Origin: an uncultured Dehalococcoidales bacterium
GTDB lineage: Bacteria; Chloroflexota; Dehalococcoidia; Dehalococcoidales; UBA2162
Length of the DNA stretch: 64,000 bases
Assembly (NCBI GenBank): GCA_964453525.1
Contig: CAYVOV010000002.1
Coordinates: forward strand, 10,189 to 74,188
Reading direction: 5' to 3'
The notes beneath the pieces were generated by a model. It was not told where the DNA came from, ran no database searches, and saw nothing but the letters and a program-made list of their open reading frames with translations. The translations under genes were made by a program, and so were the position numbers. Shown here piece by piece: positions 1,738 through 51,394 of this stretch (positions are counted from its first letter, which is position 1; each line of letters starts with the position of its first letter).

Positions 1738-2143
1738 CTGTCAATGAATACACATTATAATTGTCACCACGTGATAATTTGAGGATAATATCTTACAGTG
1801 TAGACGCATTTTGTGTAACCGGATTTCACAAAAGGAAAAACCTAAAGATTATTAATAATACGAGAAGGTTAATAATATCCGGCAAACAAAACTAAACTGT
1901 AAATAAGAGAGAATATGACGGAGAGTTGGCTTTGCCACGAGATTCGATGTTGTTGCAGGTCATATTTGCCAACCTGCAGCAACATCGTCACCTCCTCCAG
2001 ACCCCCTTGGCTGCAGCCTTGAGGAAACGTGACCTCACGGAAAGGCCAGCCAAGGGGGTTAAATAATTTATAACATAACCACTTGAAACACTCAATCAGA
2101 AAGTATATAATCCAAAATAAATGCAAAAAAGGAGGTGAAAAAT

Positions 2144-4530: not shown

Positions 4531-6354
4531 TTGATAAAGAGAATTGTATGGTTGCTGCTGAGTTGCATGATGGCAATCTCTCTATTGGTGGCATCATGCG
4601 GTCCAGCAGCTGAAGAGGAGGAGGAAGAAGAAGTAATTATCGGTGAGGAAGAGGAAGAAGAAGAAGAGGAAGAAGAAGTTGTAACACCTTCAGGTGAACC
4701 TGTTTATGGCGGGACGCTTTATCTTTGCTCTGCCGTCGATATCCTCAATTTCGACCCGATGGACTGGGTCGGCGGGGGACCCTCTCTTGACCTTACCATG
4801 AATAGACTGTGGGACGGCGACTGGGCAAAGGGCAAGGCCGGCGGCTACGGCACCGGAGAGACGGACTGGGCGACCAGCTACGATGTCCGTGCCCACAAGA
4901 GAGGATACATCGCAGAGACTATTAACTTCGAAATCGACGATGCTAGCGGAATGGGTAAAATCATCTATAAAATCCGGAAAGGCATACACTGGGCATTGAA
5001 CCCGAACAGCCGCGCCGCTGTCATCACCAACGGACGGGAAATAAACGCTGATGATGTGGTCTTTTCTCTCAACAGATGTATAACCGACCCCAATGCCAAT
5101 ATCTACCGGTCCAACCCATTCCTGCGCACTGCCGTCATCACCAAGACCGCGCCGGACACAGTAACGGTAGAAGTTCCCATCGAGCGTGTGCTGGAAGCAG
5201 CCAAGCGTTTTGGTGATTCTACCTTCCCGGTACCCAAGGATGCCATTGAACAACTCGGCAACATCCGCGACTGGAAAGATGCGGTCGGCACAGGTCCTTT
5301 CATCCTGACCGACTATGTGGTAGCCAGCACAGTAACCCTCAAGAAAAATCCCGATTACTGGCTGAAAAACCCGGTAGGTCCGGGCAAGGGTGACGACCTG
5401 CCATACCTCAATGAAGTAAAATGGCTGATAATCCCCGATGCTTCGACGAGGCTGGCCGCTTTGAGGACAGGAAAAATAGACCAGCTTTACGACATAACTT
5501 ACGAAGACGCCAAACAGCTTAAAGCGGCGGAAGATGAAGGACTTCTCAAGGTAGTACAGGACACCGTTCACGAATTTCCCGCCTACATGAGAACAGACAA
5601 GGAGCCTTACAGCGATGTCAGAGTCCGCCGGGCGATGATGATGGCTATTGACCAGGAAACCATAGAGAGGGACCTGTACGAAAGCTCCGGCAGACTTATC
5701 ACCTGGCCCTACTATTACAGCAAGGCTTACGAGAACCTTTACCTGGGTCTGGATGACCCGGAGATGCCGGCATCTGTGAAGGAGTTGTTTGAATATCACC
5801 CTGATAAAGCAAAGCAATTGCTGGCGGAAGCCGGATATCCTAACGGTTTCAAGACCGAGCTGATATGTAATTCCACGCAGGCCGATTACTATTCGATAAT
5901 CAAGGATTACTGGGACGATGTGGGTATCGAACTTGAGCTTAAAGTGGTAGAAGCCGGCGCTCTTCGTGCCGTCCAAACCGGGCGGACCCACGAGCATCTG
6001 GTTACCAGCTCGACCGGTCCTCCGTCCATCTGGCCAATGCTGATAGTACTGACCGGCGAAGGCTGGCAGAACACCAGTTTGCTTGATGACCCGGTAGTCA
6101 ACGAGGCGGCTGCTGAGATAGGCCGAATGGCAATAACCGACGAATTGGGTGCCATGGCCAAGACCAAGGAACTGATGAAGTACGTCCTCGACCAGGCCTG
6201 GGTGATTCAGAATCCGGACTTCCCCCGGTACGTATTTTACTGGCCCTGGATAAAGAACTACTCCGGTGAGAGAAGCATCGGCTACTTCTGGGTACACTCC
6301 TGGCCTCAGTTCGTCTGGCTTGACGAAGACCTCAGAAAGTCTATGGGTAAATAA
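4531..6354 (+). CDS. ABC transporter substrate-binding lipoprotein, family 5, paralog 2
   Basis: TTG start 9 nt after AAGGAGG. It shares the paralog 1 architecture: lipobox VASCG, poly-Glu tether, GTGPF, KKNPDYW, AALRTGK, AGYPNGF. Confidence 0.9.
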   Translation: MIKRIVWLLLSCMMAISLLVASCGPAAEEEEEEEVIIGEEEEEEEEEEEVVTPSGEPVYGGTLYLCSAVDILNFDPMDWVGGGPSLDLTMNRLWDGDWAKGKAGGYGTGETDWATSYDVRAHKRGYIAETINFEIDDASGMGKIIYKIRKGIHWALNPNSRAAVITNGREINADDVVFSLNRCITDPNANIYRSNPFLRTAVITKTAPDTVTVEVPIERVLEAAKRFGDSTFPVPKDAIEQLGNIRDWKDAVGTGPFILTDYVVASTVTLKKNPDYWLKNPVGPGKGDDLPYLNEVKWLIIPDASTRLAALRTGKIDQLYDITYEDAKQLKAAEDEGLLKVVQDTVHEFPAYMRTDKEPYSDVRVRRAMMMAIDQETIERDLYESSGRLITWPYYYSKAYENLYLGLDDPEMPASVKELFEYHPDKAKQLLAEAGYPNGFKTELICNSTQADYYSIIKDYWDDVGIELELKVVEAGALRAVQTGRTHEHLVTSSTGPPSIWPMLIVLTGEGWQNTSLLDDPVVNEAAAEIGRMAITDELGAMAKTKELMKYVLDQAWVIQNPDFPRYVFYWPWIKNYSGERSIGYFWVHSWPQFVWLDEDLRKSMGK

Positions 6355-9962: not shown

Positions 9963-10847
9963 ATGGAAAACATAACTTTAGACCCCCGGACACAGAAAAA
10001 GCTGCTGACAGCACAGAAGACTGAAATAACAGAGCATTTTATCTACGATAAGCTTTCGCGCTCAATTAAGGGTGCTAACAATGTAAAAATTATCAGAGAT
10101 ATCTCAAAAGACGAGCTCAAGCATCACAACTTATGTAATCAGTTCAGCTGCCAGGACGTAAAACCGAACAAGTTCAAGGTCTGGATATACTATTTAATCT
10201 CAAGAGTACTCGGGATAACCTTCGGGCTGAAGCTGATGGAGAACAGTGAGGAGAAAGCTCACCGGGTCTATAAGGAACTATCAGAGATGATTCCTGCGGC
10301 AGAAGCTTTTGCCCGGGATGAAGAGAGGCATAAAACTCAGCTTATTGACCTTATTGATGATGAAAGCCTGAACTATACCGGTGATATTGTCCGGGGGCTG
10401 AATGTAGCCCTTGTCGAGATTACGGGAGCTCTGGCAGGTCTCACTTTCGCCTTCGAGAACAGCAGCCTTATCGTTACTACGGGACTGATAATCGGGATTA
10501 TTATGACGCTTTCCGTAACAAGCACCGAGTACCTTGCTGCCAAATCAGGCTTCGGCATTAAGAGTCCACTGAAGTCAGTAGTCTATGCTGGACTCGCTAA
10601 TATTATTACGGTTGCTGTCCTGCTGCTTCCTTATTTGCTGATTACGAATATATTCATCTCCTTCGGAGTGATGATTGCCATTGCCATAACAATAATTTAC
10701 CTGTTCTCATTCTATATGTCAGTTATCAGGGACATTCGCACAAGGGTAATATTCCTGGAAATGGCAGCCATCAGTCTGGGAATAGCGGTGTTAGCCTTTG
10801 CCATCGGACACCTGGCAAAAGAGTTCCTTGATATCCATATCGTATGA
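9963..10847 (+). CDS. Ferritin-like/VIT1 (CCC1) family Fe/Mn transporter (MbfA-like)
   Basis: N-terminal rubrerythrin-like helices (EHFIYDKL, ELKHH, DEERH) are fused to a C-terminal multi-TM VIT1-like domain. Confidence 0.7.
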   Translation: MENITLDPRTQKKLLTAQKTEITEHFIYDKLSRSIKGANNVKIIRDISKDELKHHNLCNQFSCQDVKPNKFKVWIYYLISRVLGITFGLKLMENSEEKAHRVYKELSEMIPAAEAFARDEERHKTQLIDLIDDESLNYTGDIVRGLNVALVEITGALAGLTFAFENSSLIVTTGLIIGIIMTLSVTSTEYLAAKSGFGIKSPLKSVVYAGLANIITVAVLLLPYLLITNIFISFGVMIAIAITIIYLFSFYMSVIRDIRTRVIFLEMAAISLGIAVLAFAIGHLAKEFLDIHIV

Positions 10848-10921
10848 TTAGTGGAAATAATAAAAGGGGAGCCGAGTTTATTAATCCGCAGAACTTCCTC
10901 TTAACTGCGTCTGTAATAGGT

Positions 10922-11140
10922 CTAATCTGATTGAACAAGCTGGCTTAAAAGACACTCCACGATATCACCAGTATCCTCTAGTTTAACCTCGCAGACCTTC
11001 TCTTTTATCACCTGTCCCTTTATGGCTGAGCGTATTGACTTGGTTTCCAACAGTGTGCCTATTTTACCAGTGTATGTATTATCACTATGTTCAATTATTC
11101 TGACTTTATCGCCGATTTTAAAAATAACGGATTCTCTCAT
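10922..11140 (-). CDS. Small hypothetical protein (KOW/SH3-like pattern)
   Basis: 72-aa ORF with an IGDKVRI...GKIG pattern. No family recognised. Confidence 0.4.
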   Translation of the reverse strand: MRESVIFKIGDKVRIIEHSDNTYTGKIGTLLETKSIRSAIKGQVIKEKVCEVKLEDTGDIVECLLSQLVQSD

Positions 11141-11184
11141 GCGGCACTCCCCTTGAACTAAATGGAAAAGGTGGTTTTGATTCT

Positions 11185-11700
11185 TTATTGTTGACCACCC
11201 TCTTTTTCGCCATACGACTCAAGTTCTCGAACTCTTTTCTTTGCCATATCCCTCTGGGCTTTAATACTCGACCTCGCCACTACTAGAGGGTCCGCCAAGG
11301 GCTTATAGACTTGGTTATCCACTAAATGTCTGTGACTTTGAAATGCTTTTAACATTTCTACGTCTGTTTTATAGTCCGATAATTCAAGGAACTTCTTATA
11401 ATCTGCTAATGCTTCCTTCTTCTTGCCGTAATCATCATATAATGCCCCCCGAGAAAGATAGGCATCTGCATATTCAGGGTCAAGAGCTATTGCTATGGTT
11501 AAGTCAGTAACGGCATCCTCATAACGCTCTATCCCCTTCTCTTTATCATCGTAGTAAGTTTCACTTACTCTATCATAATGAGCCTTTGCAGAGTCGATTT
11601 TTAATGCTTTACGCCACTCTGCATTTTTCCTTTTATTGCTAACCACGATTACTACATATAAAATAATGAATACGGCGACTAAAATAATCCATGTCTCCAT
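11185..11700 (-). CDS. Membrane-anchored TPR-repeat protein
   Basis: N-terminal TM helix, then TPR-like repeats (AIALDPEYADAYLSRGALY, ALADYKKFLEL). Confidence 0.65.
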   Translation of the reverse strand: METWIILVAVFIILYVVIVVSNKRKNAEWRKALKIDSAKAHYDRVSETYYDDKEKGIERYEDAVTDLTIAIALDPEYADAYLSRGALYDDYGKKKEALADYKKFLELSDYKTDVEMLKAFQSHRHLVDNQVYKPLADPLVVARSSIKAQRDMAKKRVRELESYGEKEGGQQ

Positions 11701-11930
11701 GGCTACACCACCCGTTCAGTTAAGCAAAGTTCACCACAAGGCTGTTTGACATGTAGAGATTTTTGAATATAGTAGCACAACCAAATTTTTCAAGCTAACG
11801 GAGCCTTACAAAACTTCAAGCTATCCTGATGCTCGAAGTATTAAGGTCTTTGACGCTGAGTTGACAACAGGTCTGTTCTTTCTTACATTGGGTATTGTGA
11901 AGACTACTCTGAAAGTTGCTCCGAAAATAG

Positions 11931-12003
11931 ATTGTCCCCCGTTCGCCCTGAGCTTGTCGAAGGGCCGTTCATGGTTTCGACAGGCTCACCACGAACGGCT
12001 TTT
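11931..12003. repeat. REP-like palindromic intergenic element (SLSKG-type), copy 1
   Basis: Long imperfect hairpin CCGTTCGCCCTGAGCTTGTCGAAGGG...TTCGACAGGCTCACCACGAACGG. It shares the CTGAGCTTGTCGAAGGG core with 27298-27316. Confidence 0.6.
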
Positions 12004-17534: not shown

Positions 17535-17600
17535 CCAGTTACTCCTTTGACAAGAGAAACTACATTTAGCAAAGGTACTATTCTGTTTTGTTTGGTAATG

Positions 17601-18152
17601 TCATTGCAGGGAGTCCGCCATCTGCCTGCCGAGCCGTTTTGCCGCTTCTACAAGGCTGGGGTTTGTCTTTACCTCTCCGGGTTCGCTGGCATAACCGGAA
17701 ACAATGAACTTGCCGCCCTCTTTAATATCAAAGCTCCAGTCAACAAACTGATTCAGGGTATGCAGGGTATCCTCGATTGCCTCCATTTCAGCCACCACTA
17801 TCATACCTACCACACTTGCTTTATAGGGGAGGTCATGTTTATAAGGGAAGTAATTTCTATCGATGAAGGCTTTCATTTGGGACGTAACGTTATACCAGTA
17901 GACCGGCGTGGCAAGGATAACTCCATCGGCATTCCGGAAATCCTCAATTATCCAGTTGGCATCGTCCTTCTGGGTACAGGACTCAAAGGTGGAGCAGTTA
18001 TAATGTCCCAGGCACGGACCGACATTGTACTGACTCAGTACTATTTTTTCAGTCTGCACTCCGTGCTTCTCTGCTTCTTCAAGCGCCATGTCAACAAGAT
18101 AGCTGGTGTTTCCTTTTATCCTCGGGCTGCCGACTATTGCTACAATCTTCAA
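17601..18152 (-). CDS. Flavodoxin-fold NAD(P)H-dependent FMN reductase/iron-sulfur-flavoprotein-like
   Basis: MKIVAIVGSPRIKGNTSYL N-terminus. It lies immediately downstream of the Bam-like cluster on the same strand. Confidence 0.7.
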   Translation of the reverse strand: MKIVAIVGSPRIKGNTSYLVDMALEEAEKHGVQTEKIVLSQYNVGPCLGHYNCSTFESCTQKDDANWIIEDFRNADGVILATPVYWYNVTSQMKAFIDRNYFPYKHDLPYKASVVGMIVVAEMEAIEDTLHTLNQFVDWSFDIKEGGKFIVSGYASEPGEVKTNPSLVEAAKRLGRQMADSLQ

Positions 18153-18413
18153 CCTTCTTCACCCCTGTGCACTGTTGGCGAAATTCCCTGCATCTGCCAG
18201 TGTTCCGGGTCCATGCCGCGGATGAAGTGGCAGGAAAAAGCCTTTCGCAAAGTGCCTGCTCCCGGCTTGAACAGGGAGAGATTGAGAGGGATTTATTATA
18301 AAATCCCTGTTCAATTCCAATGAGTTACATCTGAGAAAGCCACACTTTTTCAGTTTACAGCAGACCGGCTGCCATAAGACCGTCAAGAATCCCGGTAAAT
18401 TCACTTTCTTTCT

Positions 18414-19250
18414 TTATCTTCCTCTACCCTTTCTGGCGATAGTCCTCGCCTCCTCGGGGATAGGTGCCGGAATCGGCCCGGAAACTATCTCCCTGATTGC
18501 GGCAAAGCGAGGCGGACAGGCTTTAAAACAGGTCCCGCATTTTATGCATCTCTCCTGGTCGATGATATGGACAAGGTTCTTGCCACCAGCAACCGCCTCC
18601 ACAGGGCATTCCCTAGCGCAAATCCCGCATGCCTGGCACTTATCCGGCTCAATATAGTACGAAACAACTTCACCAAACAGCTTCTCTATCTCATCAATTG
18701 TAAAAAGTTGGTTATATTCTTCGGGATCCGTGAGGCGTGTCCCCAGCTTCTCATTTTTTACCAATTTTATATACGGGACTAACTTAATAATGTCTGAAAG
18801 TCTGGACTTTAATTCATCTTCATCAATACCTTCGCTTTTACCGAGTGGTCCCACCTCGCGCACCTTTTTGCCGAAATCGTTCATTATTTCCGTGAAAAGG
18901 ATTCCGTCACCGGAAGTCATAAACTCAATCCTTAACCTTTCCAGATTCAGGCCAATGTGTTCAATTATTCTTTTACATAAAAGCACCATGTTTAACGCAT
19001 CATAATTTCCTTCAGTGGTATAATTACATTCATTCAGACGGCAGCCGCCAATAAATACCCCGTCGGCTCCGTTCAGGAAAGCCTGGAGCACCATCTCCAG
19101 GTCGACCCTCCCGGTGCACATTACGCGTATCAGCTTGGTTTCAGTTGAATATTGCAGTCTGGAAACTCCAGCCAGGTCAGCAGCGCCGTATCCTCACCAG
19201 TGGCAGACGAAACCAAGTATCCCCGGTTTGAAATCGAGTGCCGTACTCAT
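18414..19250 (-). CDS. MvhD-like / 2x[4Fe-4S] ferredoxin fusion, selenoprotein (BamF-like)
   Basis: The track ORF (18414-19121) extends in frame to ATG 19250 through TGA at 19194-19196. The N-terminus reads MSTALDFKPGILGFVCHW-U-GYGAADLAG, placing the TGA at the second Cys of the MvhD CxWC motif. The C-terminus has two CxxCxxCxxxCP motifs. Confidence 0.8.
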
Positions 19251-19289
19251 TCTTTTCTCCCTTGTAATCAATAAACCTTACTTCTTTAA

Positions 19290-22200
19290 TTAGTGAGCCG
19301 TTACGCGGTCCGGAAACGCCACATAAATCTGGCTTAAGAGTTCTTCATTGGTAAAGTGTTTAAGTGAAATAGCCCCTGTCGGACACTTTGCGTTGCAGAG
19401 ACCATCTCCTTTACAGAGAACAGGATTAACCCTTGCCTTTTTACCCTGTTTCGTTTCCTGAAAATCAATGGCTCCATAAGTACAGGCTCTAATACATGCC
19501 CCGCACTCAATACACTTTTTCTCATCCACCTCGCAAACCGAGCCAGATGTGGTGACCGTATCATTAGAGAGTAGTGTCAGGACCCGGCCGGCTGCTCCAT
19601 AAGCCTGATTAATCGTTTCCGGTATATGCTTTGGATAATGAGCCAGTCCACATAGATAGACACCGTCCGTAGCAAACTCAACAGGTCTTAGCTTTACATG
19701 GGCTTCTTTGAAGAAATCATCCGGGTTCAAAGCAACCTTGAATAAAGCTGCCACTTCTCTGGTTCCTGCGGAGGGAATAACAGCGGCGGCCAAAGTGAGG
19801 AAATCAGCGTCTATGGCAACCATCTTACCCATAACAGGGTCGGGCACGGTAACCCTCAGAATCTGCTGGCCGCCCTCCTCAATGGCTTCCACCTGAGGTT
19901 TGTTTTCCGGCTCATAGCGGATGAACATAACGTCCTTCTCACGTGCTTCCCGGTAATAGTCCTCTATGAATCCATAGGTTCTCATGTCCCGGAAAAGTAT
20001 GTAGATATCCATCTCAGGATTAATTTCTTTCAGTTTCAATGCGTTCTTTACAGATTCGCTACAGCATATCCGGCTACAGTAATTTCTGTCTTCGTTTCTG
20101 CAACCCACACATTGAATCATCACCAGGCACCGGGCATTTACCAGACTTTCTTCTCTTCCGGCGATTTTATCCTCCAGTTCCAGGTGGGTCAATACCCTCT
20201 TATCCCGCCCGTAAAGGTACTCGGTGGGAGTATATACATCGGCTCCCGTGGCAATCACGGTCGCTCCGTGATTTATCTCCGTGATACCTCGTTCAGAATC
20301 CACCGTGGTCACGAAATTCCCGATATAACCGGTAGCCTCTGTAATTATAGCATCGGTATAAACATGTATTAACGGATTATGGTAAACCTTGCCTATAATA
20401 TCGCTCAAATACGCCTGAACATCCAGCCCATCCAGCGTGTAATGAATTCTCCGGGCTATTCCTCCAAGGTCCTTGTCCTTTTCCACAAGATGGACCTCAT
20501 GCCCCTGTCCGGCTATGGAGAGAGCGCAGGTCATACCGGCCAGGCCGCCACCAATCACTAACGCCACCTTGTTTACCGGCAGTTCGAATTCCTCTAATGG
20601 CTCCAGATAACAGGCTCGCGCTACCGACATACGAACTATTTCCTTTGCCTTCCGGGTGGCTTCTTCCTTTTCCCGCGAGTGAACCCAAGAGCAATGTTCT
20701 CTTATATTGGCGAATTCAAAGTAATACTGATTAATCCCTGCCTCCCGGAGGGTGTCCCGGAATAACGGCTCAAGGGTTCTGGGGGAGCAGGCGGCCACAA
20801 CCACACGGTTGAGCCCTTTTTCCTTTGTCACGTCCGTTATTTCCTGAGCGCAATTGGTAGCGCATGAAAATAGTTGTTCCTGAGCGTGGACAACATTGGG
20901 TAAGGTTGATACATATTCAACCGTGGAGGGAACGTTTACCACTCGCCCGATATTGGCTCCACAGTGACAGACAAAGACTCCCACCCTGGGCTCCTCTCCC
21001 GAGACATCCCTTTCCGGCGGATATACCCTTTCCCTGGCAAGTTTGCCCCGCCTGTAGTCGAGGAGTTCGCCACTCTGGGAGCCAGCTCCGCTGGCAGTAA
21101 AAACCGACTCCGGGATATCCATCGGACCCTGGAATGCCCCGCTGACGAAGATTCCCGGCCGGGTGGTCTCGATAGGGTTAACAGGATTTGTTTTACAGAA
21201 CCCATGATTATTGAGCTCGATGCCGAAGGTGTCAGCTAAATTCTCTACGCCATCAAGGGCATCCAGCCCGACGGACAATACCACAAGGTCAAATTCCTCT
21301 TCCTTTACTCCCTCATCGTAAGTGGAGTATTTCAATGTCACGTTCTTGCTTTCCGGTATCTCTTTTCCAATCGATACATAGCTTCTTATAAACCTGACCC
21401 TGGGGAGGTTCTCCGCTCTCTGATAAAACCGCTCGAAGTCCTTGCCGAACGACCGGATATCATTATGGAATACGGTACATTCGACATCGGCATCATGTTC
21501 TTTTGTCAGAATCACCTGTTTCTGGGTATAGGTGCAGCACACCGCCGAGCAGTAGCTGTTACCGCCCGGTATGACCTGTCTGGAGCCGACGCACTGAATC
21601 CAGGCTACCTTTTTCGGATGTTTCCCGTCTGAAGCGCGCCTTATTTCCCCTTCGTATGGACCCGTGGCGCATAACAGCCTTTCATAGTCCATACTGGTTA
21701 CCACATTCTCAAACTTCCCATAGCCGTACTCATCCTGCAAAACCGGATCGAAAGGCTCAAGACCGGGAGACAGGATTATCGCCCCAACACTTATTTTCAA
21801 CTCCTCGGGCTTCTGACTGAAATCTATAGCATTGTTCTCACAGACTCTTTCGCAAAGACGACACTTCTTCTCTTTAAGATAAAGACAGCTTTCATCTATA
21901 TAGGCAACAAGGGGAATTGCCTGAGCGAAGTATATATGGACGGCTTTGTTCTTGGATATTTCCTGATTATATTTATCCGGGTACTGGACGGAGCAGTATT
22001 CCACGCAGGTAGTACAGCCCCGGCACTTATCCTCTATAATATACCTTGGCTTTTTAACCAGAGTTACCCTGAAGTTTCCTGCTTCACCTTCTACTTTTTC
22101 GACTTCAGTATAACTCAGAACCTCTATGTTTGGATGCCGGCCGACCTCGACCAGTTTGGGCGAGAGTATTCACATCGAGCAGTCATTGGTGGGGAAGGTC

Positions 22201-22385
22201 TTATCGAGCTGGGCCATATGGCCGCCGATGGCAGGTAGTTTATCAACAAGGTAGACCTTAAAACCAGCATCAGCCAGGTCAAGCGAGGCTTGAATACCGC
22301 TGACGCCTCCTCCAACGACCATTACATCTCCATAGCCCTTAGCAGGTTTCTGAGTTCTCTCATCTGGTAATAGTTCTTTTTCCAC
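19290..22385 (-). CDS. Large HdrA-like FAD/Fe-S oxidoreductase, selenoprotein (BamE-like)
   Basis: ORFs 22170-22385 and 19290-22004 share one frame, joined through TGA at 22170-22172. The junction reads [19 protein letters not shown], the HdrA DCSMC motif. There are two dinucleotide-binding folds (VVGGGVSG; VIGGGLAG) and several ferredoxin motifs. Total length is 1031 codons. Confidence 0.85.
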
Positions 22386-22415
22386 TTTATTATTCCCTTA
22401 CCGGATTTCTTGGCT

Positions 22416-23561
22416 TCACCGAATCACTTCCCGGATGATTTCCGTAATATCTTTAATCTCTACTGCGTCACTACCCTTCACAGATAACTTGCTGTCCTCG
22501 AAATTGGTGATGCAATACGGGCACGAGGTAACCAGTACCTCAGCCCCGGTATCCATTGCCTGTTCCAGTCTGATATCGGAGAACCGTTCACTCTTCGGGG
22601 TGTCCATCCAGATCCTGCCGCCTCCGCCTCCGCAGCAGAGACTATTCTCCAGCGAGTCAATCATCTCAACCAGTTCCAGACCGGGTATCTTTTCCAGGAC
22701 CTCCCTTGGTTCGTCATATATGCCGTTATGGCGTCCCAGGTAACACGGGTCATGATAGGTGACTTTCTTCCCGCACTCTCCGGTGAGTTCAAGTTTTCCG
22801 TCGTTAATAAGTTCGAGTAAATACCGGGTTATATGCACCACCTCAAAATAGACATTAAATTCGGGATACTCGTTTTTGAAGGTGTGGTAGCAATGAGGGG
22901 AAGAAACAAGGATTTTATGCACTCCATTTTCGATAAACGTTTTAATGTTTTCTATAGCCAGGCGCTCGTATAATTCCTCATCACCTGTCTTACGGATGCT
23001 TTCTCCACAGCAGTTCTCTTTTTCTCCAAGTATCCCGAAATCTACCCCTGCCCTGTTAAGGATACCGACTGTGGCAGCAGCCACCTTTTTTAATCTCGGG
23101 TCATAGCAGAGATAGCAGCCGGGAAAATAAAGAACTTCCATCCCTCTGGTGAACGGTTTAACATCAAGACCTTCCGCCCAGTCCGCCCGGTTTGCCCGTG
23201 CTTCACGCAGGGGGTTACCTTCAGCGCCGAGGCTGGCACTCACGGTGTGGATTGGAGCCGGAGAAATCCCGTACTCCGAGGCAATCCTGCGGAAGGACAG
23301 GCTAACATCTATCGTGCCCACTCCCTCGGGGCAGCGTTGAGGACAGCTTCCGCAGGTGGTACAGCGCCACATATCTTCGCCTTCTATTTCGGGGAGACCG
23401 AAGGCGGCCTGCCGGACTATATTGCGCATACTGAAGTTTGTAACCCTGTTCCAGGGGCAAACAGTATCGCATTTTCCGCACTGATAGCATAGTTTATAGC
23501 CTTCTCCGCCGGCTTGCTTTATTTCGTCTATTGCCTCTCTGAAGCGTGATATAGTCTCCAC
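22416..23561 (-). CDS. HdrD-like Fe-S protein with CCG domains (BamD-like)
   Basis: N-terminal CYQCGKCDTVCP and CTTCGSCPQRCP motifs. Two CCG-type Cys-rich regions are present (ENCCGES, SLCCGGGGG). Confidence 0.85.
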   Translation of the reverse strand: METISRFREAIDEIKQAGGEGYKLCYQCGKCDTVCPWNRVTNFSMRNIVRQAAFGLPEIEGEDMWRCTTCGSCPQRCPEGVGTIDVSLSFRRIASEYGISPAPIHTVSASLGAEGNPLREARANRADWAEGLDVKPFTRGMEVLYFPGCYLCYDPRLKKVAAATVGILNRAGVDFGILGEKENCCGESIRKTGDEELYERLAIENIKTFIENGVHKILVSSPHCYHTFKNEYPEFNVYFEVVHITRYLLELINDGKLELTGECGKKVTYHDPCYLGRHNGIYDEPREVLEKIPGLELVEMIDSLENSLCCGGGGGRIWMDTPKSERFSDIRLEQAMDTGAEVLVTSCPYCITNFEDSKLSVKGSDAVEIKDITEIIREVIR

Positions 23562-23594
23562 TGTCTTTCCTGACCCTCTTCTTTTGCCTTAACG

Positions 23595-24140
23595 TTAGTC
23601 CTTCTGTGACATCCGGGCAACAGCATCCGCAACCTTTTCCAGTCCGTACTTGTCAACAAGTGATTCCAGTCCCGTTTCCATCTCCCCCAGCTTCTCTTCC
23701 TCTTCGACTTCCTCTTCCCTTTCTTCGTAGGTCAGGGCATCGGATAAGCACCACTGAACACACATCGGCTCCTCCAGCGGAGGGTCACTTTCACACATAT
23801 TGCATACCAGAGGAAGACCGGAATCCGGTTCTTTAAAAAGTGTTCTGGACGGGCAGGCAGCCCTGCAGAAAGAACATTCGTCATGTTCATTTCCGTCCAT
23901 CACGTATTTATATCTGCTGACGCACTCGGCTCTGGCGTACTCCCCGGCGATTACAGGAATAAAAATATCTTTCAGCGGTTCACAGGTCACCCCGATATGA
24001 GATTTCGCCGGGCTATTACTGCCGTACTGAGGCTCGGCGTGAAAGGCGGAGCAGGCTACCTCACATGCCCGGCAACCGTTGCATTTATCAACATCTATCT
24101 TGATTACCTTAACTGTTTTCTTTTTTTTCTCACCCATCAC
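23595..24140 (-). CDS. Poly-[4Fe-4S] ferredoxin-like subunit (BamC-like)
   Basis: CNGCRACEVAC, CSFCRAACP and CNMC...CVQWC motifs. It lies directly downstream of the AOR-family gene. Confidence 0.8.
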   Translation of the reverse strand: MMGEKKKKTVKVIKIDVDKCNGCRACEVACSAFHAEPQYGSNSPAKSHIGVTCEPLKDIFIPVIAGEYARAECVSRYKYVMDGNEHDECSFCRAACPSRTLFKEPDSGLPLVCNMCESDPPLEEPMCVQWCLSDALTYEEREEEVEEEEKLGEMETGLESLVDKYGLEKVADAVARMSQKD

Positions 24141-24156
24141 CGCTCAGTTCCTCATA

Positions 24157-26163
24157 TTATTTTTTCTTTGTCTTCGCCGGAGTCTTTTTTGAGGGAGCAG
24201 CTTTGTCATTTTTCAGGATGCCCCTTTTCAGGAAGTCTTCACTGATGTAACCCAGACCCAGTTCCTGCAAAGACTCTCTGGTAGGAATTCCCTGGTTATT
24301 CCATCCCTTGAATTTGTAATATTCGTCCAGGAGCTTCGTTTCAAGCTCAGGAAACCTTCTTCTCCAGTGGTCCTCAGGCGGCTTCTCATCACTTCTCCTC
24401 ATGCCTCTTCTTATATTAATCGCTCTGAGCAGAGTCCGGTTTCTCCGGGCTATTTGTGATAACCCGGCTTCATCGATATCGATTCCGGTCGCCGACGAGA
24501 TAAAAGCCGGGAAATTGTGTATATGATAAGGAGGTTTAAGGGGGAACGATGACAGACCAGCGCACACTCCCAGAGAGTCATCGATATAGTGCATCTTCTC
24601 CTGCCAGTCAACAATGTCGCAGGCTGCTTCAACGGTCGGGTAATAAGGATTCGAGTGTTCTCCGCGAGGGTCCCAGTCAAGAAAGTATTGCTTGAACTTT
24701 TCATCGGGAACCTGTATCCAGTCCTTTGCAAAATTTTCCCTCTCTTCTCTGGTGGCAAAGGGTTCCTGAGGGAAAGACCCTTCAATCTGGGTAATGTTTA
24801 TCTTCTCACCGGTAGCGTACATAAGGAAATAGACGGGATTCAGCATTCCCAACTTCAGAGGCAACTGCTCATGTTTTTTAATAGTGTTATGGTCATATTC
24901 TTCGGCGCCATTACCAATCTGGCGGGCGGCGTGATAAACGCCATTGGCCAGAACATCTCCTATCCCTTCCCGCCGTACGATTCTGTCAAGCAACCAGAAG
25001 AACCTGCCCTCGTTATCGGGTGGAAATCCCGGCAGATCCTTATCAGTTAAAATACCGGCTTCACAAAGCTCCAGGGCGAAAGCCATCACCTGAGGGGCAG
25101 TGAATCCGTCCACGCCGTACTCCGTAGCCCGCTGAGCGATTCTAAAACCGAAATCCAGGTCTGACATGGCTGCCATTGTATAGGTAAGCTTCGTATAGCA
25201 TTTCATCATGTACTTAGAAACTCCCGGGTAGGAAACTATTGCTCCGCATTTCATCGGACAGTTATAGCAGCTTATTAACCGCTCTAGCACACTTTCCTGA
25301 GTTTTTCTCCACTTCCTTTCAACATTCCTGGTCCAGAAATCTCTTCTTCTGTGGCGGGCATTTCCCCAGGTGAAATTGGCGGTGTGCCACTCCTCATCAT
25401 ATAATGCCATCTCCTGAGGTGAGCCCAGCCCGGCTATAATGGGAGGTACTCCCGGTATTGGATTTTCATTTCTCCATTTAATATACTGCAGCACTTCATT
25501 GCAGAGCGCGAAAAACTCTGTCGGGCGGGCAATATTAATTTCCTTTGTTCCGCGGACGGCTATTGCCTTTACCCCTTTATCGCCCATAACGGCGCCTATT
25601 CCTAATCTACTGGCACTGGACCTGCCATGCTCGATGGAGGCATAGTATACCCGGTTTTCACCGGCAAGGCCTATAGATGCTATCTGGGCTTTTGGTTCGT
25701 CCAGCTCCTGGCGGATGAGTTCTTCGGTTTCAACAGCGCCTTTACCTCGTAAATGAGAAGCATCCCGTATTTCTATCTTGTCATTGTTTATCCACAAATA
25801 GACCAGGTCAGGTGACTTGCCGCGGAGGACGACTTTGTCATAACCGGCAAACTTCAATTCCGGTGCCCAGAATCCTCCCATCATTGAATACGCCATCAGC
25901 GAAGTCTGAGGAGAAAAGGTAGAAACAATGGTACGATTGGCGCCGGGAGCAGGTGTGCCACATAAAAGACCGGTGCCGAATATTAATAGGTTATCAGGAG
26001 AAAAGGGCTCGATTTCAGGGGGAACCCTGTCCCATAACATTTTGGCGTTGGTACCCAGTCCGCCGAGATAAAGTCCGGTTAATGCCGGGTCAGTTCCTTC
26101 TTTCTCGATATTTCCCCGGGAAAGGTCAATCTGCAGGTCGACTCCTGTCTCCGCATACCTCAT
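24157..26163 (-). CDS. Aldehyde:ferredoxin oxidoreductase-family tungsten/molybdopterin enzyme (BamB-like)
   Basis: 668 aa. It has an AOR N-terminal domain pattern (LYLGGLGTNAKMLW, GANRTIVSTFSPQT) and an AOR C-terminal domain. Confidence 0.85.
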   Translation of the reverse strand: MRYAETGVDLQIDLSRGNIEKEGTDPALTGLYLGGLGTNAKMLWDRVPPEIEPFSPDNLLIFGTGLLCGTPAPGANRTIVSTFSPQTSLMAYSMMGGFWAPELKFAGYDKVVLRGKSPDLVYLWINNDKIEIRDASHLRGKGAVETEELIRQELDEPKAQIASIGLAGENRVYYASIEHGRSSASRLGIGAVMGDKGVKAIAVRGTKEINIARPTEFFALCNEVLQYIKWRNENPIPGVPPIIAGLGSPQEMALYDEEWHTANFTWGNARHRRRDFWTRNVERKWRKTQESVLERLISCYNCPMKCGAIVSYPGVSKYMMKCYTKLTYTMAAMSDLDFGFRIAQRATEYGVDGFTAPQVMAFALELCEAGILTDKDLPGFPPDNEGRFFWLLDRIVRREGIGDVLANGVYHAARQIGNGAEEYDHNTIKKHEQLPLKLGMLNPVYFLMYATGEKINITQIEGSFPQEPFATREERENFAKDWIQVPDEKFKQYFLDWDPRGEHSNPYYPTVEAACDIVDWQEKMHYIDDSLGVCAGLSSFPLKPPYHIHNFPAFISSATGIDIDEAGLSQIARRNRTLLRAINIRRGMRRSDEKPPEDHWRRRFPELETKLLDEYYKFKGWNNQGIPTRESLQELGLGYISEDFLKRGILKNDKAAPSKKTPAKTKKK

Positions 26164-26217
26164 TTTCTACCCTCTCAGGTTGCACAGTATCATAATAATT
26201 TTATTAAGAACGAAAAG

Positions 26218-27093
26218 TTAATATGCTTCTACCACCGAATAAAAATACTCATTGGCTTTTTCAGTCAGCAGGTCGTGGAATTCCTGAAACAGAGCTGCCG
26301 CCTTGGGCCGTAACCAGTCTTCAGGTAACAGTTCTTCGGGTAGGTCAGGGTCATAGAAGGGTAATTTTCTGTATTCATGAATCAGAGCAAATCTTTCCAC
26401 GAAGTGCTCACTGGCCTCGACAGGCTCAACGGCCTGAAGGCGCTGCAGCCAGTTCTCATATCTGGGCTGGTATTCCGCCATAAATCTGGCGTACATTTCA
26501 TGTATCCGGTCCAGGTCCCAGCACGTTGATACTACTTTACTGGCATCAACAAGGCCCTGCTGCCTGGCCTGAAAGATTTGAATACGCTCGGTGACACCGA
26601 ATTTTTCCGCCAGCTCTATCACTTCCGCGGTTAAATCATAGGGTGAAATCATGGTAGCCCCTCCCAGTGTCCCGTATCCCATCCAGATTAGTTCGCGGCG
26701 GAATAGGTCCCTCGTTTTCCGGTTCTGTTCGGGAATCGAATAGGTCACGATATTCCAGGTCCCGTCCCAAGTGGTGTCTTTCCTGACGAAGATGCGCTGG
26801 GCTCCCGTGGTGAGCAGGTTATGTCCCTCTGTGGTCAGGGAGTAATAGCTTTTGCGTGCCCGACTCTTTCCCCTGCTCCTTACTTTTAGCAGACCGGAAC
26901 GGCACATTCGGGATACCGCCGACCTCACCGCCTGCTCGGAAAGCCCGAAGTTACCGAAGAGGACTATCAGACTCCCGATGCCGATTTCTTCTCCACGGTC
27001 GAGAAGGTAGTCCCCGTACAGGGTCAGCATGGCTGATTGCGGACGAATAACACGTTTACGAGTATTCTGTGAACTTAAAGTCTTATATGTCAT
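26218..27093 (-). CDS. paaX: PaaX-family transcriptional regulator
   Basis: LYGDYLLDRGEEIGIGSLIVLFGNFGLSEQAVRSAVSRM and a PaaX C-terminal domain. It lies 54 nt upstream of, and co-oriented with, the AOR-family gene. Confidence 0.8.
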   Translation of the reverse strand: MTYKTLSSQNTRKRVIRPQSAMLTLYGDYLLDRGEEIGIGSLIVLFGNFGLSEQAVRSAVSRMCRSGLLKVRSRGKSRARKSYYSLTTEGHNLLTTGAQRIFVRKDTTWDGTWNIVTYSIPEQNRKTRDLFRRELIWMGYGTLGGATMISPYDLTAEVIELAEKFGVTERIQIFQARQQGLVDASKVVSTCWDLDRIHEMYARFMAEYQPRYENWLQRLQAVEPVEASEHFVERFALIHEYRKLPFYDPDLPEELLPEDWLRPKAAALFQEFHDLLTEKANEYFYSVVEAY

Positions 27094-27235
27094 TTAATTT
27101 ATATGGCGTTTTATTTTCGTTATATAAATAATAAACACATTCGGCATTTTTGTCAATAGGGAGCTAGAAAACTTTTTACTTAATTATGGTTGCACAGGCA
27201 ACAATGAATACCAATATTTCTTTAGCCGCTGTGGT

Positions 27236-29167: not shown

Positions 29168-30978
29168 TCAGTAGCCCATCGATTTCTTCATGTCCTGGTC
29201 AACCCAAGCGTACCTGATTAATCCTACCCCCTGACCGTAGTGGTTTTTCAGCCAGGGCCACCAGAAAGCGTAGCTGTAGGGTAACGGGAAGGGTATAACA
29301 TAGGCTTGCTCCATGACGTAATGGTTAACCTTCTTAACCGCTTCGTAAACCCTGGGCATATCTACAAAGAGATACTCGTCCTGCTCGTTAAAGAGGTCTT
29401 CCAGATACGGGTCTGTTCCATACGGGCTGTTGATATGACTTATATTCAGTATCGCAGGGCCCCGGGTAAAAGCCTGATAAAGGTGCATGTTGAAAAACGA
29501 ACCCGGGAAGGTTCGATAGAGCATTTCATCGTATGGAACGCCGGCACCGACGTGTGCAGTATAAGCTCCTCCTTCTTTAATATCCAGCTCCAGCTCGACT
29601 CCTATTTTTGCCCACATCTCTTTTATTATTGATAGTTCATCGACACGCTCCGGAATAGACTGGACAATAATACTGGTCTTGAAACCATCGGGGTAGCCGG
29701 CTTCGGCCAGAAGTTGCTTTGCTTTATCTGGGTTATATTTGAAAAGCGTTTGAATCGCCTCCGGAAGCTTATCTAATGGCTCGTAGAAAATCAAGGTCGG
29801 ATTTGCCGGCCAGTTCACTATTTCAGCCTCACCAAGATAGTAGTCTTTCTTGATTATTTCGAAATCGGTAGCCATCATAAGCGCCTGGCGTACCCTGACA
29901 TCACTGTAAGGATTTTCTTCCTTTTCCTGCGCCATGCCGATTCCTTGCATTCCAGTTACGAATTTCACGTACTCGAGATCAGGAGCCGTCTTCCACAGGG
30001 TTTGGGCGTCAGTCAGCGTGACACCTGCTTGAAAGTCAAGCTTGCCGGTGCGCAGCGCTGCATAAGTAGTGGACAGGTCAGCTATTATCAGTTCCTTCAT
30101 CGCATCTGGATAAGGCAGCTGGTTTCCCTTACCAGGGCCTGCCGGGTCTTTTTCCCAGTAGTTCGGATTTTTCTTGTAATTTAGTACGCTTCCTGGAACA
30201 TAATCAACCAGCATGTAAGGTCCCGTCCCGACGGCGTTTCGCCAGTCTGCCACGTTACCATATTTGGTTATCACTTCGGGGGGATAGACCCGGAAAAATC
30301 CAGCCCCTTGGATTATCCATACAAATGCTGTCATTATTTCTTCAGGTGTCCTGATGGTTACTTGCATGGGACCTGTTTTTTCAATAGTTGCCGACGCTGT
30401 TACTTTCGGCTGTCCGCGTACTATCCATGAGTTGGGAGTATTCCCATCTTTGTTGAGCAAGTAGTTAAAGACGTATACGATATCATCCGCTGTCAATTCC
30501 CGGCCGGCCATCAGACGCCCGGCTTCACTATCGACGGGTTGCCAGTGGACACCCTTGCGAATGTTCAATACCCAGACACCTTTTTCGGGTATTTCCCAGC
30601 TCTCGGCAATCTGAGGCCCGTATGAGTCCTCTATTGAGCCGGCACCAGCGGCATAATTGGTAACTCCGCTGCCGGCAGGCCCTCTAAGCCAGTCGGAGCC
30701 CATGAATTGCTGATATACAGTATCCACCAATGCTCCGGGTGCGGCATCGTGGCGCTATCAAAATTAGTCGGATCCATTACAGAACGATAGGTAATAGTTC
30801 CGCCATACTTGGGCTTATCGGGAGAAGGTAATGTTTCTTCCTCTTCCTCTTCTTCCTCTTCACCGATTACAACCTCTTCTTCCTCCTCTTCTTCCTCTGC
30901 CGCCGGACCGCAAGACGCCATTACCAGGGATATCGCCATCAAACAGCTCACCATCAACCACACAACTTTCTTGGCCAT
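29168..30978 (-). pseudogene. ABC substrate-binding lipoprotein, family 5, paralog 3, frameshifted
   Basis: The N-terminal ORF (30631-30978: signal peptide, lipobox, poly-Glu tether, KYGGTITY) and the body ORF (29168-30730) overlap in different frames. Alignment to paralogs 1 and 2 places a 1-nt deletion near 30750-30754. Confidence 0.75.
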
Positions 30979-32769: not shown

Positions 32770-34179
32770 CTACCCTAACTTTATTTCTTGCTTCATATTA
32801 TAGTAATCCAGCGCTTTTCTCAAAGCAAAAGCACCGCGTTCCGGGGAAATGAATACAGGCACACCGCCGCTCTGGAAACCCTGAATTATCTCCCCGGCCA
32901 GCTTTACTCCATCGGGTGAAAATGACCAGGAGAGAATAACCATCACTGGTTTGAAGGTATTTCTGCTTATATCAATCACCGAATTAATATGTTCCTCCAT
33001 CGTGTCGCTGGAGCGTGCATTCATCAATAGCACCATACTGTCGATATTCTCGTCCCTAACCAGAATTTCCATGATGCGTTTCATCCGCCTGTTATTGGTA
33101 TTGGCGGTATCTACGGGATTTTGATAAGCCCCGCCTATCATGTCAAAGAATGTTGCCAGCTCATCATATGATTTCCTGGTAAGAGCGGGCACTTTCAGTC
33201 CGGCTTCGGTAAAAACATCAGCGGTTACTACCGATTGCCCTCCTGAACCTCCGGTTATTCCCACTCCTTCGCCCGGTACTTCCGGCAGGTAAGCGAGGGC
33301 TTTCAGGGTATCGATAAGCTCCTCCATTTTGGACACCCTGATAGCTCCACCCTGCCTGACGGCAGAGTCCCATATTGTTCTTGACACGGCCAGCGTCCTG
33401 GTATGAGAGGCACTGGCTCTTTCTCCTTCTACAGTGCGTCCGCCTTTCCATATAACCACCGGCTTTCTAGCAGAAACTTCTCTTAGCGCAGTGAGTAATC
33501 GTTTACCGTCCCTGACTCCTTCTATGTACATACCGATGGCTTTTATTTCCGGGTCCTGCCCGAAGTACTCCAGGTAATCGGGAGAATCAAGCACCGTCCC
33601 GTTACCAAAGCTCACCGCTTTATTAATATCCAGTCCCTGGAGATGTGCCTCACGGTTGAAGGTTACGGCGTGCATACCGCTCTGCGAGATTAAGCCCACA
33701 TGCCCGGAATAACTCTCAGTCCAGGCACTGCCGAGTCCCAGCCCGATTCCAGGATTGAAGACCCCCATGCAGTTGGGACCTATCAGGTGAAAGCTGGCTG
33801 CTTCCGCTTTTTCAACAAGCAGGCGCTCGAGTTTAATCCCTTCCTCGGAATTGCTTTCGGAAAAGCCGGCGGTAAAAAAATGAGCGGCGGTAACATCCTT
33901 ACGGATGCAATCATCAAGGATTTTTGGAGTTACTGCCCTGGGTACGGCAACAATAACAAGGTCTACCGGCTCAGGAATATCCAGCAAGCTGGTATAATTC
34001 TCCACCCCCATGGCTTCTATACCCTCGATTTCTTTCGGGTCGACCTGCACTGAATAGAGTTTGCCCTTGAAGTTGCTATTGGAGCGGGACCACATAAAGT
34101 TGTTTTCACCCTTATCGCCCACAATGGCAACGCACTTGGGATTAAAAGCCCTGTCAAGTTTGCTGAAATCTACCTTCAT
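32770..34179 (-). CDS. Acyl-CoA synthetase (NDP-forming), alpha/CoA-binding subunit-like
   Basis: CoA-binding N-domain (VAIVG...) and a succinyl-CoA-synthetase-like flavodoxin domain (GPNCMG, SQSG, His-loop-like ASHT). Confidence 0.75.
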   Translation of the reverse strand: MKVDFSKLDRAFNPKCVAIVGDKGENNFMWSRSNSNFKGKLYSVQVDPKEIEGIEAMGVENYTSLLDIPEPVDLVIVAVPRAVTPKILDDCIRKDVTAAHFFTAGFSESNSEEGIKLERLLVEKAEAASFHLIGPNCMGVFNPGIGLGLGSAWTESYSGHVGLISQSGMHAVTFNREAHLQGLDINKAVSFGNGTVLDSPDYLEYFGQDPEIKAIGMYIEGVRDGKRLLTALREVSARKPVVIWKGGRTVEGERASASHTRTLAVSRTIWDSAVRQGGAIRVSKMEELIDTLKALAYLPEVPGEGVGITGGSGGQSVVTADVFTEAGLKVPALTRKSYDELATFFDMIGGAYQNPVDTANTNNRRMKRIMEILVRDENIDSMVLLMNARSSDTMEEHINSVIDISRNTFKPVMVILSWSFSPDGVKLAGEIIQGFQSGGVPVFISPERGAFALRKALDYYNMKQEIKLG

Positions 34180-43661: not shown

Positions 43662-44231
43662 TTAATCACCAAAAGGGCTACGGAATATTCCCCTTTTTTT
43701 CTCTTTCCCAACAGAACGAATCTTCCAATCACATGTTCTGTTCCAAATAGATATGCATAAGTTTATCGGAGATTTATCACCTTCTTCTAATGAAAATCTG
43801 CTATCATCACGAATTAAGCCGTGGTGTGACTCCAACAATTTATAAACATATCCATCGCTATAGCTATCGAATGTATATATCCATAATTTATTTTTTATTT
43901 CTCTAATATTTGCGAATTCAATTGCTTCGGCTGATGAACCGGGGGTTATTGCCAATATTATGGCTAAATCCGAATCAAGAACTTCAGCTTTTAATATTGA
44001 ATACCAATTACTGTTTTTAAAGTCCTTATCCCGGATTATAACGGTAAAACCGTATTGTGTTAGAACATATCCAATGTTCTCACGTAAATAGTAAAGCTCA
44101 TCTCCTGATTTTGGTCCACCCAGCCATACTTTGAATTTCTTAACGTTACTCTTAATAAGGTTGACCAGTGGTCCAGGTAGCTCTGCTTCTCTTTTGTGAA
44201 TCTCTTGTAACCAAGATGTTGTTATTTTCAT
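43662..44231 (-). CDS. Nucleoside 2-deoxyribosyltransferase-like (NDT/SLOG-type Rossmannoid) protein
   Basis: KVWLGGP ... ILKAEVLDSDLAIILAITPGSSAEAIEFA matches the NDT-fold pattern (YLAGP ... D.v.a......G...E.G.A). Confidence 0.5.
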   Translation of the reverse strand: MKITTSWLQEIHKREAELPGPLVNLIKSNVKKFKVWLGGPKSGDELYYLRENIGYVLTQYGFTVIIRDKDFKNSNWYSILKAEVLDSDLAIILAITPGSSAEAIEFANIREIKNKLWIYTFDSYSDGYVYKLLESHHGLIRDDSRFSLEEGDKSPINLCISIWNRTCDWKIRSVGKEKKRGIFRSPFGD

Positions 44232-44253
44232 TGTGTTTTGAGAAAATAAGCTA

Positions 44254-47155: not shown

Positions 47156-47302
47156 TATGCAACTACTTATCTCTACTTAGTGTTAATTGTGTGCATCATC
47201 TGATTAGTATAGCCCAAGGATAATTACCATTCAAGGACGAGCTTCGGTTGGATCACCTAAAAGCTGGTTCAACCTTCACCAGTATTGTCTACCCCTTTTA
47301 TT

Positions 47303-47950: not shown

Positions 47951-47957
47951 TGGATAA

Positions 47958-51352: not shown

Positions 51353-51394
51353 AAATTGATATATTTATATCATTAACTGATAGATATATATCAG
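51335..51394. promoter_or_regulatory. Three AT-rich palindromes upstream of the HTH-MTase operon (operator candidates)
   Basis: ATGAT-N8-ATCAT (51335-51352), TGATATA-TT-TATATCA (51357-51372), CTGATA-N6-TATCAG (51377-51394). Confidence 0.5.

Follow-up and report, generated by a model that had tools for sequence, protein, structure and literature searches.

A BamH-type ferredoxin domain on BamF probably defines a common five-subunit, ferredoxin-only variant of class II benzoyl-CoA reductase

Class II benzoyl-CoA reductase is the key enzyme of aromatic breakdown in strict anaerobes, and it is among the few biological systems that work below the potential of ferredoxin. In the current model of the Geobacter complex, this ability is ascribed to two electron-bifurcation modules in series (10.64898/2026.04.10.717634). 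We analysed a 64 kb stretch of contig CAYVOV010000002.1 from an uncultured Dehalococcoidales bacterium (here called the window), in which a PaaX-family gene heads a set of genes resembling bamB to bamF, with no bamG, bamH and bamI beside them. The question raised by this locus is how low-potential electrons would enter such a reductase.

The six genes paaX-bamB-bamC-bamD-bamE-bamF are tightly packed on the minus strand, from 27093 down to 18414, with spacers of 54, 16, 33, 30 and 39 nt in order from paaX. All six lie where the initial annotation of this DNA had placed them, in the order, on the strand and with the sizes it had given from PaaX through the MvhD-ferredoxin protein. The last of them, bamF (18414-19250, minus strand, 278 aa), encodes an MvhD-like adaptor (Pfam FlpD, residues 11-134) joined to a ferredoxin (Fd) domain (two Fer4 matches). 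This C-terminal 2x[4Fe-4S] domain (residues 194-278; 18417-18671, minus strand) is homologous to the C-terminal domain of BamH. BamF residues 194-277 and residues 558-640 of the BamH of a related locus (L012) are 60% identical and 81% similar over 83 residues without a gap, and the match reaches to within two residues of both C-termini, including the proline-rich tail. Against BamH, the domain scores 119-142 bits, whereas no other solved Fd domain exceeds about 56 bits; its closest PDB matches in sequence belong to HydB, HoxF and NfnB, in each case to the C-terminal Fd domain. In some loci the BamH match stretched to about residue 498, and this extension was too weak for interpretation. In an AlphaFold model of BamF (pLDDT 76.7), a helical linker joins an MvhD fold to a ferredoxin fold, and the best fold matches of the model are MvhD followed by B subunits of the HydB/NfnB type. 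In the HydB/BfuB-type subunits (PDB 7T2R_B, 9BOV_B, 7P5H_B and 8A6T_B), the C-terminal domain that aligns with BamF residues 192-252 is a ferredoxin interaction site; unlike in those proteins, the domain is here detached from the FMN/NADH-binding core and joined to an MvhD-type protein.

A scan with one genome per species gave 586 relatives, of which the best 80 loci were analysed with flanks of up to 10 kb. The order bamBCDEF was found in all 80, and two architectures could be told apart by what follows. In canonical loci, bamF is followed by genes for BamG (about 150 aa, 2Fe-2S_thioredx), BamH (642 aa, Complex1_51K and NADH_4Fe-4S with a C-terminal double Fer4) and BamI (about 204 aa, Fer2_4 and Fer4), and BamF itself (255 aa) ends in an ArsR-type helix-turn-helix (HTH) domain (Pfam HTH_5, residues 204-235). 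In short-form loci, no BamG-, BamH- or BamI-like gene comes after bamF, and BamF (about 275 aa) carries two CxxCxxCxxxC motifs where the canonical protein has the HTH domain. The window cluster is of the short form, and its BamF lacks HTH_5. Among the 48 BamF genes with at least 2.6 kb of downstream sequence, bamGHI were absent next to all 30 that encode an Fd-type BamF and present next to all 18 that encode an HTH-type BamF. The absence of BamGHI that the initial annotation had pointed out was borne out across the 64 kb window, where Pfam scans of the larger open reading frames (ORFs) found no NuoE-, NuoF- or NuoG-like gene, and in a tblastn search, the BamG, BamH and BamI proteins of a related locus matched only the C-terminus of bamF (18438-18671). 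In the Geobacter complex, the winged helix of BamF is the interface with BamI (10.64898/2026.04.10.717634). Going by the sequences, the BamI-docking winged helix is replaced in the window BamF by the putative ferredoxin-accepting domain of BamH, and it is inside BamF that the loss of BamGHI is predicted to be compensated.

The two architectures are close in their catalytic parts. The BamB proteins of L012 (canonical) and L027 (short form), both encoded at 10001-11965 of their loci, are 94.5% identical, and several canonical clusters have their nearest BamB relative within the set in a short-form cluster. This implies that the same catalytic core works with either input, and that the input module has been exchanged between very close relatives. 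In neighbour-joining trees without bootstrap, the BamB proteins and the BamF N-domains of both architectures were intermixed, and a single origin of the short form is thus unsupported. In Desulfobacterota, several kinds of gene come directly after short-form clusters: an AMP-binding (benzoate-CoA-ligase-like) gene in L008, L014, L024 and L027; a gene for an HdrD-like 673-aa membrane Fe-S protein together with electron-transferring flavoprotein (ETF) genes in L016, L026, L030, L053, L060, L069 and L073, and in part in L035; a gene for a xanthine-dehydrogenase-family enzyme resembling 4-hydroxybenzoyl-CoA reductase in L063. In L003, L057 and L079, also from Desulfobacterota, SelA comes next, and the Dehalococcoidales locus L001 has a second bamB and an HdrD-like protein of the 673-aa type downstream. 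Judged from these loci, the short form looks functional and not decayed, and these contexts fit ETF as the acceptor at BamD, as described in the preprint on the Geobacter complex.

Two further variations were seen among the relatives. A third architecture is made up of canonical clusters whose BamH, of about 547-555 aa, lacks the C-terminal Fd domain (L022:18189-19847, L071:18233-19861, L061:1291-2970 and L059:5869-7549). In addition, a protein of about 250-286 aa recurs near bam clusters of Chloroflexota (L051:9341-10201, L002:975-1772, L064:2019-2771 and L072:2113-2817), and in L051 its gene sits between bamD and bamE; the window cluster has no such insertion. In the ORM2a cluster, the slot between bamD and bamE holds an FdhD sulfurtransferase gene (PMC13101534).

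The identity of the catalytic subunit is clear from several comparisons. The product of bamB (24157-26163, minus strand, 668 aa; AFOR_N and AFOR_C), the tungsten-pterin subunit of the AOR family, scored 1140 bits against BamB of Geobacter metallireducens (PDB 4z3w_A), as opposed to 227 bits for the best aldehyde oxidoreductase, and the two BamB proteins are 71.6% identical without a gap over 651 aa. The poly-ferredoxin BamC (23595-24140, minus strand, 181 aa), the electron-transfer subunit with three [4Fe-4S] clusters, matched PDB 4z3w_E over residues 2-180 (236 bits). A review lists as hallmarks of BamB the tungsten ligand Cys322, a Cys ligand without counterpart in aldehyde oxidoreductases, and Glu251, His255, Glu257 and His260 of the Zn site and proton relay (PMC12096430). 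The window BamB has Cys322, Glu257 and the proton donors Glu251 and His260, all invariant in 83 relatives, and in the same relatives Cys299, Cys302, Cys306 and Cys534, likely Fe-S ligands, are invariant too. The nearest BamB sequences are from Dehalococcoidales (80-83% identical); second-copy paralogues at two loci reach no more than about 60% identity. In a neighbour-joining tree, Geobacter BamB nests within the group that holds the window BamB. The AOR homologue is thus inside the BamB clade and, with the exception of position 255 (see below), keeps the BamB-specific residues, which upholds the BamBCDEF-type class II core proposed in the initial annotation. Very probably, then, the cluster encodes a class II benzoyl-CoA reductase core of the tungsten- and selenium-containing, ATP-independent type.

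The remaining subunits resemble heterodisulfide reductase components; the residue numbers of BamD, BamE and BamF given here were mapped onto Geobacter by motif, not by alignment. The HdrD-like BamD (22416-23561, minus strand, 381 aa; Fer4_8 and two CCG domains), a fused HdrC/HdrB protein and the high-potential output subunit, has Ser221 in place of Cys in the CxxC motif of its first CCG domain. A Cys-to-Ser change in BamD likewise marks the distal D4 cluster in Geobacter (10.64898/2026.04.10.717634). BamE (19290-22385, minus strand, 1031 aa, GTG start) is a double HdrA-like flavoprotein, which matched the NCBIfam HdrA2 model in three stretches (937 bits) and keeps the HdrA-type lysine motif (289), the C-terminal 2x[4Fe-4S] domain and a Cys-x-x-Cys/selenocysteine (Sec) pair. 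This arrangement resembles HdrABC-MvhAGD of methanogens (PDB 5ODC), where an HdrA-type bifurcating flavoprotein is also fed via an MvhD adaptor; the BamF N-domain matched 5odc_D with 134 bits and a fold match of TM 0.70 on the target. In contrast to the methanogen complex, no hydrogenase serves as the donor here, a tungsten enzyme takes the place of ferredoxin as the low-potential acceptor, and HdrB and HdrC form one fused protein, in which Ser221 alters one of the two CCG CxxC motifs.

Two in-frame TGA codons, in bamE (22170-22172, residue 72, motif C69-S-M-U72) and in bamF (19194-19196, residue 19), were compared across homologous loci. The codon aligned with the bamE TGA was TGA in 54 and TGC or TGT in 9 of 63 loci, and that aligned with the bamF TGA was TGA in 44 and TGC in one of 45. 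Because TGA and Cys codons align across the relatives, the two TGA codons are read as Sec and not as errors, and comparative codon counts thus back the Sec that the initial annotation had assigned to the Hdr/Mvh-like components; both are predicted to be genuine Sec positions. The BamF of Geobacter also has Sec19 (10.64898/2026.04.10.717634). Folding of the 63 nt past each UGA for a Sec insertion sequence (SECIS) gave hairpins 18 and 23 nt downstream that were no stabler than those of shuffled sequences (z = 0.08 and 0.28). Sec72 of BamE occupies the second position of the C-x-x-C pair equivalent to Cys59-Cys62 of Geobacter BamE; in Geobacter, this pair makes up a redox-active disulfide located between the bifurcating FAD and cluster E3 (10.64898/2026.04.10.717634). 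Since TGA stands at the Cys62-equivalent position in 54 of the 63 relatives, most environmental enzymes would form a selenenylsulfide there.

Taken together, the window cluster shares with Geobacter Bam[(BC)2DEFGHI]2 (BamBC, PDB 4Z3W; cryo-electron microscopy, 10.64898/2026.04.10.717634) the order from B to F, the BamB residues Cys322, Glu251 and His260, a BamC that matches with 236 bits, a fused double-HdrA BamE, an MvhD-like BamF with Sec19 and the Cys-to-Ser change in one CCG domain of BamD. It differs in having no BamG, BamH or BamI in the window, in a BamF that ends in a BamH-type 2x[4Fe-4S] domain and not in the BamI-docking winged helix, in the Sec that replaces the second Cys of the BamE pair equivalent to Cys59-Cys62, and in the PaaX-family regulator at its head.

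In the Geobacter complex, the H1 and H2 clusters of the C-terminal BamH domain accept external reduced ferredoxin, the electrons of which are merged with those of NADH at the FMN of BamGH (confurcation); BamI takes the electrons onward to the C-terminal clusters of BamE and the [2Fe-2S] cluster of BamF, and the FAD of BamE bifurcates, with a low-potential branch to BamC and BamB and a high-potential branch via BamD to ETF (10.64898/2026.04.10.717634). As the window BamF is without the BamI interface and carries a ferredoxin-accepting domain, we infer a direct supply of electrons from ferredoxin to BamF, without NADH as a co-donor. Reduced ferredoxin would dock directly on the Fd domain of BamF, and electrons would pass from its two clusters to the [2Fe-2S] cluster of BamF with Sec19, to the C-terminal clusters of BamE, or to both, and from there to the bifurcating FAD of BamE. 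One electron would go uphill through BamE and BamC to the tungsten site of BamB and reduce the aromatic ring; the other would take the downhill route via BamD to a high-potential acceptor, probably an ETF encoded elsewhere. Neither NADH nor a confurcation at FMN of the Geobacter type would play a part. With moderate confidence, and by analogy with BamH, we favour such a ferredoxin-only, NADH-independent input into the bifurcation module of BamE. The simplest account of the BamF fusion would be a deletion, in frame, that began inside bamF and ended inside bamH, because the canonical gene order is F-G-H-I.

Several points weigh against this reading. The role of the BamF Fd domain as the entry for free ferredoxin is carried over from BamH by homology. 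The window gives neither an acceptor nor a pathway context for this organism: Pfam scans of its larger ORFs found no genes for ETF, ETF:quinone oxidoreductase or an AMP-binding benzoate-CoA ligase, and none for enoyl-CoA hydratase or for dienoyl-CoA hydratase, dehydrogenase or hydrolase (the equivalents of bamR, bamQ and bamA, or of dch, had and oah). The link between Fd-type BamF and the absence of bamGHI has a Fisher p of 1.4e-13, a value not corrected for shared ancestry, and the trees are neighbour-joining trees without bootstrap. Position 255 of the window BamB is Tyr, whereas His belongs to the invariant set of the review. Of 83 clear BamB orthologues, however, just 37 have His there; because of this variation, we rejected the Tyr as a mark of a non-BamB function, and it need not disqualify the window BamB. 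Finally, BamGHI homologues could sit outside the 64 kb window, as in strain NaphS2.

This last point leads to a rival explanation, in which the enzyme is canonical and has eight subunits, with bamGHI located elsewhere in the genome and their products still assembling with the window BamBCDEF. The window covers only part of a longer contig, and in NaphS2 the genes bamB-F (NPH_7171-7176) and bamGHI (NPH_6169-6171) do lie in separate clusters (PMC2988823). The window BamF, however, is without the winged helix that contacts BamI in Geobacter and already bears the ferredoxin domain of BamH, and none of the 30 loci with an Fd-type BamF had bamGHI next to it, which makes this explanation improbable. 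As far as the accessible parts of the two reports go, NaphS2 and the culture BzS1, which is annotated with 'BamB-F' (PMC13416013), resemble the window in having a self-contained bamBCDEF without adjacent bamG, bamH and bamI; they differ in that their hosts are Desulfobacterota and that no PaaX accompanies the genes, and neither a BamF swap nor a mechanism is drawn from the arrangement there (PMC2988823, PMC13416013).

Instead of taking electrons from free ferredoxin, the Fd domain of BamF might connect the complex with a redox partner from an unlinked locus, for example a hydrogenase, a formate dehydrogenase or an enzyme of the Nfn type. No gene in the window names the donor, domains with two [4Fe-4S] clusters are generic connectors, and MvhD originated as an adaptor that joins HdrA to a hydrogenase. 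Nevertheless, the BamF domain is specifically BamH-like in its scores, the corresponding domain of Geobacter BamH is assigned to external ferredoxin (10.64898/2026.04.10.717634), and no extra partner gene recurs after bamF in the Chloroflexota loci; another partner is thus unlikely. A third proposal came from the initial annotation, which had put forward the flavodoxin-fold FMN reductase gene downstream of bamF as a source of low-potential electrons in place of BamGHI. That gene neighbours bamF on the same strand, 262 nt downstream of it as had been reported, but this gap is wide compared to the 16-54 nt inside the cluster, and no homologue accompanies any of the 80 related loci, 14 of which are from Chloroflexota. 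In addition, NAD(P)H-dependent FMN reductases (Pfam FMN_red) work far above the approximately -500 mV needed. Since this neighbour does not recur beside related clusters, the proposal is unsupported, and we consider it very improbable.

Independent of the architecture is the question of the substrate. Many anaerobes have several BamB paralogues, the specificity of which is undefined, and in the window BamB a Tyr stands at the variable position 255, close to the active site. Genes of the benzoyl-CoA pathway are missing from the neighbourhood in the window, and PaaX-type regulators are classically linked to phenylacetyl-CoA. The enzyme might hence act on a substituted or different aryl-CoA, or run mainly in the ring-forming direction. 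On the other hand, the window BamB is closer to Geobacter BamB (71.6%) than is the Geobacter paralogue Gmet_1802 (66%), it groups with BamB of clusters that lie beside benzoate-CoA-ligase-like genes, and it keeps Glu251 and His260. We regard a different substrate or direction as rather unlikely, and benzoyl-CoA itself is the likely substrate on the basis of these comparisons.

The regulator at the head of the cluster (26218-27093, minus strand, 291 aa) matched Pfam PaaX, PaaX_M and PaaX_C (PF07848, PF20803 and PF08223) above all cut-offs. It has the three-domain architecture of the PaaX repressor of the phenylacetate catabolon of E. coli and Pseudomonas and is likewise placed with genes of aryl-CoA metabolism. 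Unlike that repressor, it falls under the cut-off of the NCBIfam equivalog for the phenylacetate-operon repressor (TIGR02277, 218 bits; cut-off 264.55), and it stands beside an anaerobic ring reductase, not beside aerobic paa genes. Its nearest named homologues are all from Dehalococcoidales, as are the closest BamB sequences, and on these similarities, too, the host would probably be placed in that order. Among the 13 Chloroflexota loci with enough upstream sequence, 11 have PaaX immediately before bamB and the remaining two have it at another place in the locus, while it was present in none of 57 loci from other phyla; the tie between PaaX and the cluster suggested in the initial annotation thus recurs within Chloroflexota.

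The DNA upstream of paaX has two conserved elements. A sigma-70-type promoter-like site (27128-27156, minus strand; TTGACA, 17 nt spacer, TATTAT) lies 35 nt upstream of the paaX start. It agrees with the consensus at 11 of 12 positions and is the best such site in 17-28 kb, and its -35 and -10 boxes are invariant in an alignment with four Dehalococcoidales loci (L004, L007, L032 and L043). Between the -10 box and the paaX start lies a 22-nt operator-like element, ATAACGAAAATAAAACGCCATA (27102-27123, minus strand), in which two CG cores are spaced 9-10 nt apart in an A/T-rich context. This element is kept in the same four loci while its flanks diverge, and it occurs once in the 64 kb window, compared to 0 occurrences expected by chance. 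We infer from its position and conservation that it is a candidate PaaX binding site; it does not resemble the PaaX box published for E. coli. The paaX-bamB spacer is unconserved beyond the ribosome-binding site, and a second operator there was rejected for this reason. Probably, paaX-bamBCDEF forms a single operon that would be autoregulated by the PaaX-family repressor, with an aryl-CoA such as benzoyl-CoA as the putative inducer.

None of the genes that flank the cluster recurs beside related clusters. The FMN_red gene (17601-18152, minus strand, 183 aa) is separated from the upstream bamF by about 262 nt, and with it on that side lie a TfoX_N gene and a gene for a small kinase; the other side has genes for a MatE transporter, a solute-binding protein, an MFS transporter and an NDP-forming acyl-CoA-synthetase-like protein. 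The FMN reductase, TfoX and MatE neighbours were rejected as parts of the system, since none of them is conserved beside the related clusters in the 80 loci. A plus-strand ORF of 258 aa (17547-18323) overlaps the shorter FMN_red gene in antisense; as the Pfam match (E = 3.5e-28) belongs to the minus-strand ORF, the plus-strand one is probably spurious. The acyl-CoA-synthetase-like protein (32770-34179, minus strand, 469 aa; CoA_binding_2 and Succ_CoA_lig) is encoded 5.7 kb upstream of paaX, beyond the transporter genes, and could activate an organic acid, possibly an aryl acid, although nothing ties its gene to the bam cluster. The window holds no tRNA genes, tRNA-Sec included, and no Rfam families, the Moco/Tuco riboswitch included.

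Farther away, the stretch from 44000 to 52700 has a GC content of 37-40%, compared to about 48% around the bam cluster. It carries genes for an Eco57I/MmeI-type restriction-modification methylase (47958-51056), a radical SAM protein (45114-46259), a xylose-isomerase-like TIM-barrel protein and a phage-type integrase (51989-52678), and it is probably a mobile or defence island. In the segment from 55258 to 60400, small plus-strand ORFs (50-114 aa) fill about 4 kb after a sigma-70-family gene (55258-56139); GC skew (+0.25) and AT skew (+0.22) are unusually strong in this segment, which gave no Pfam or Rfam match. An IS110-family transposase (62004-63063, minus strand) is split into two overlapping ORFs (DEDD_Tnp_IS110 and Transposase_20), which implies a frameshift or programmed slippage. 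Three genes for family-5 solute-binding proteins of peptide/nickel-type ABC transporters were also found (2135-3952, 4531-6354 and 29168-30730), two of which have acidic GAA/GAG repeats near the N-terminus (tandem repeats at 2234-2300 and 4648-4678).

Genes for bamB in Dehalococcoidia metagenome-assembled genomes have already been reported in surveys. For the fusion of BamF with a ferredoxin domain, its strict link to the loss of BamGHI and the association with PaaX, we found no description in the searchable literature, including the preprint on the Geobacter complex (10.64898/2026.04.10.717634); key subscription papers lie outside that scope, and an earlier description is possible.

In summary, 30 of the 48 nearest relatives that could be judged have the short form, with an almost identical catalytic and bifurcating core and only the ferredoxin-docking domain of the first module, and the domain graft on BamF probably defines a common, ferredoxin-only enzyme variant with five subunits. 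More tentatively, and at somewhat less than even chances, this may be a widespread minimal class II reductase in which BamGHI has been cut down to a ferredoxin-docking domain on BamF and a single, ferredoxin-fed bifurcation of the HdrA type suffices, so that the serial coupling of Geobacter would be an optional energy-saving addition, and the Dehalococcoidales form would stand under an aryl-CoA sensor of the PaaX type. If the short form is active, it would define the minimal machinery for ATP-independent ring reduction, with ferredoxin sufficient as the sole donor, and would offer a five-subunit target for biochemistry and heterologous expression. Metagenomic surveys that require bamGHI for a "complete" class II reductase would under-count it. 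For the uncultured Dehalococcoidales, the link with PaaX provides a candidate regulator and a candidate operator for aromatic catabolism.

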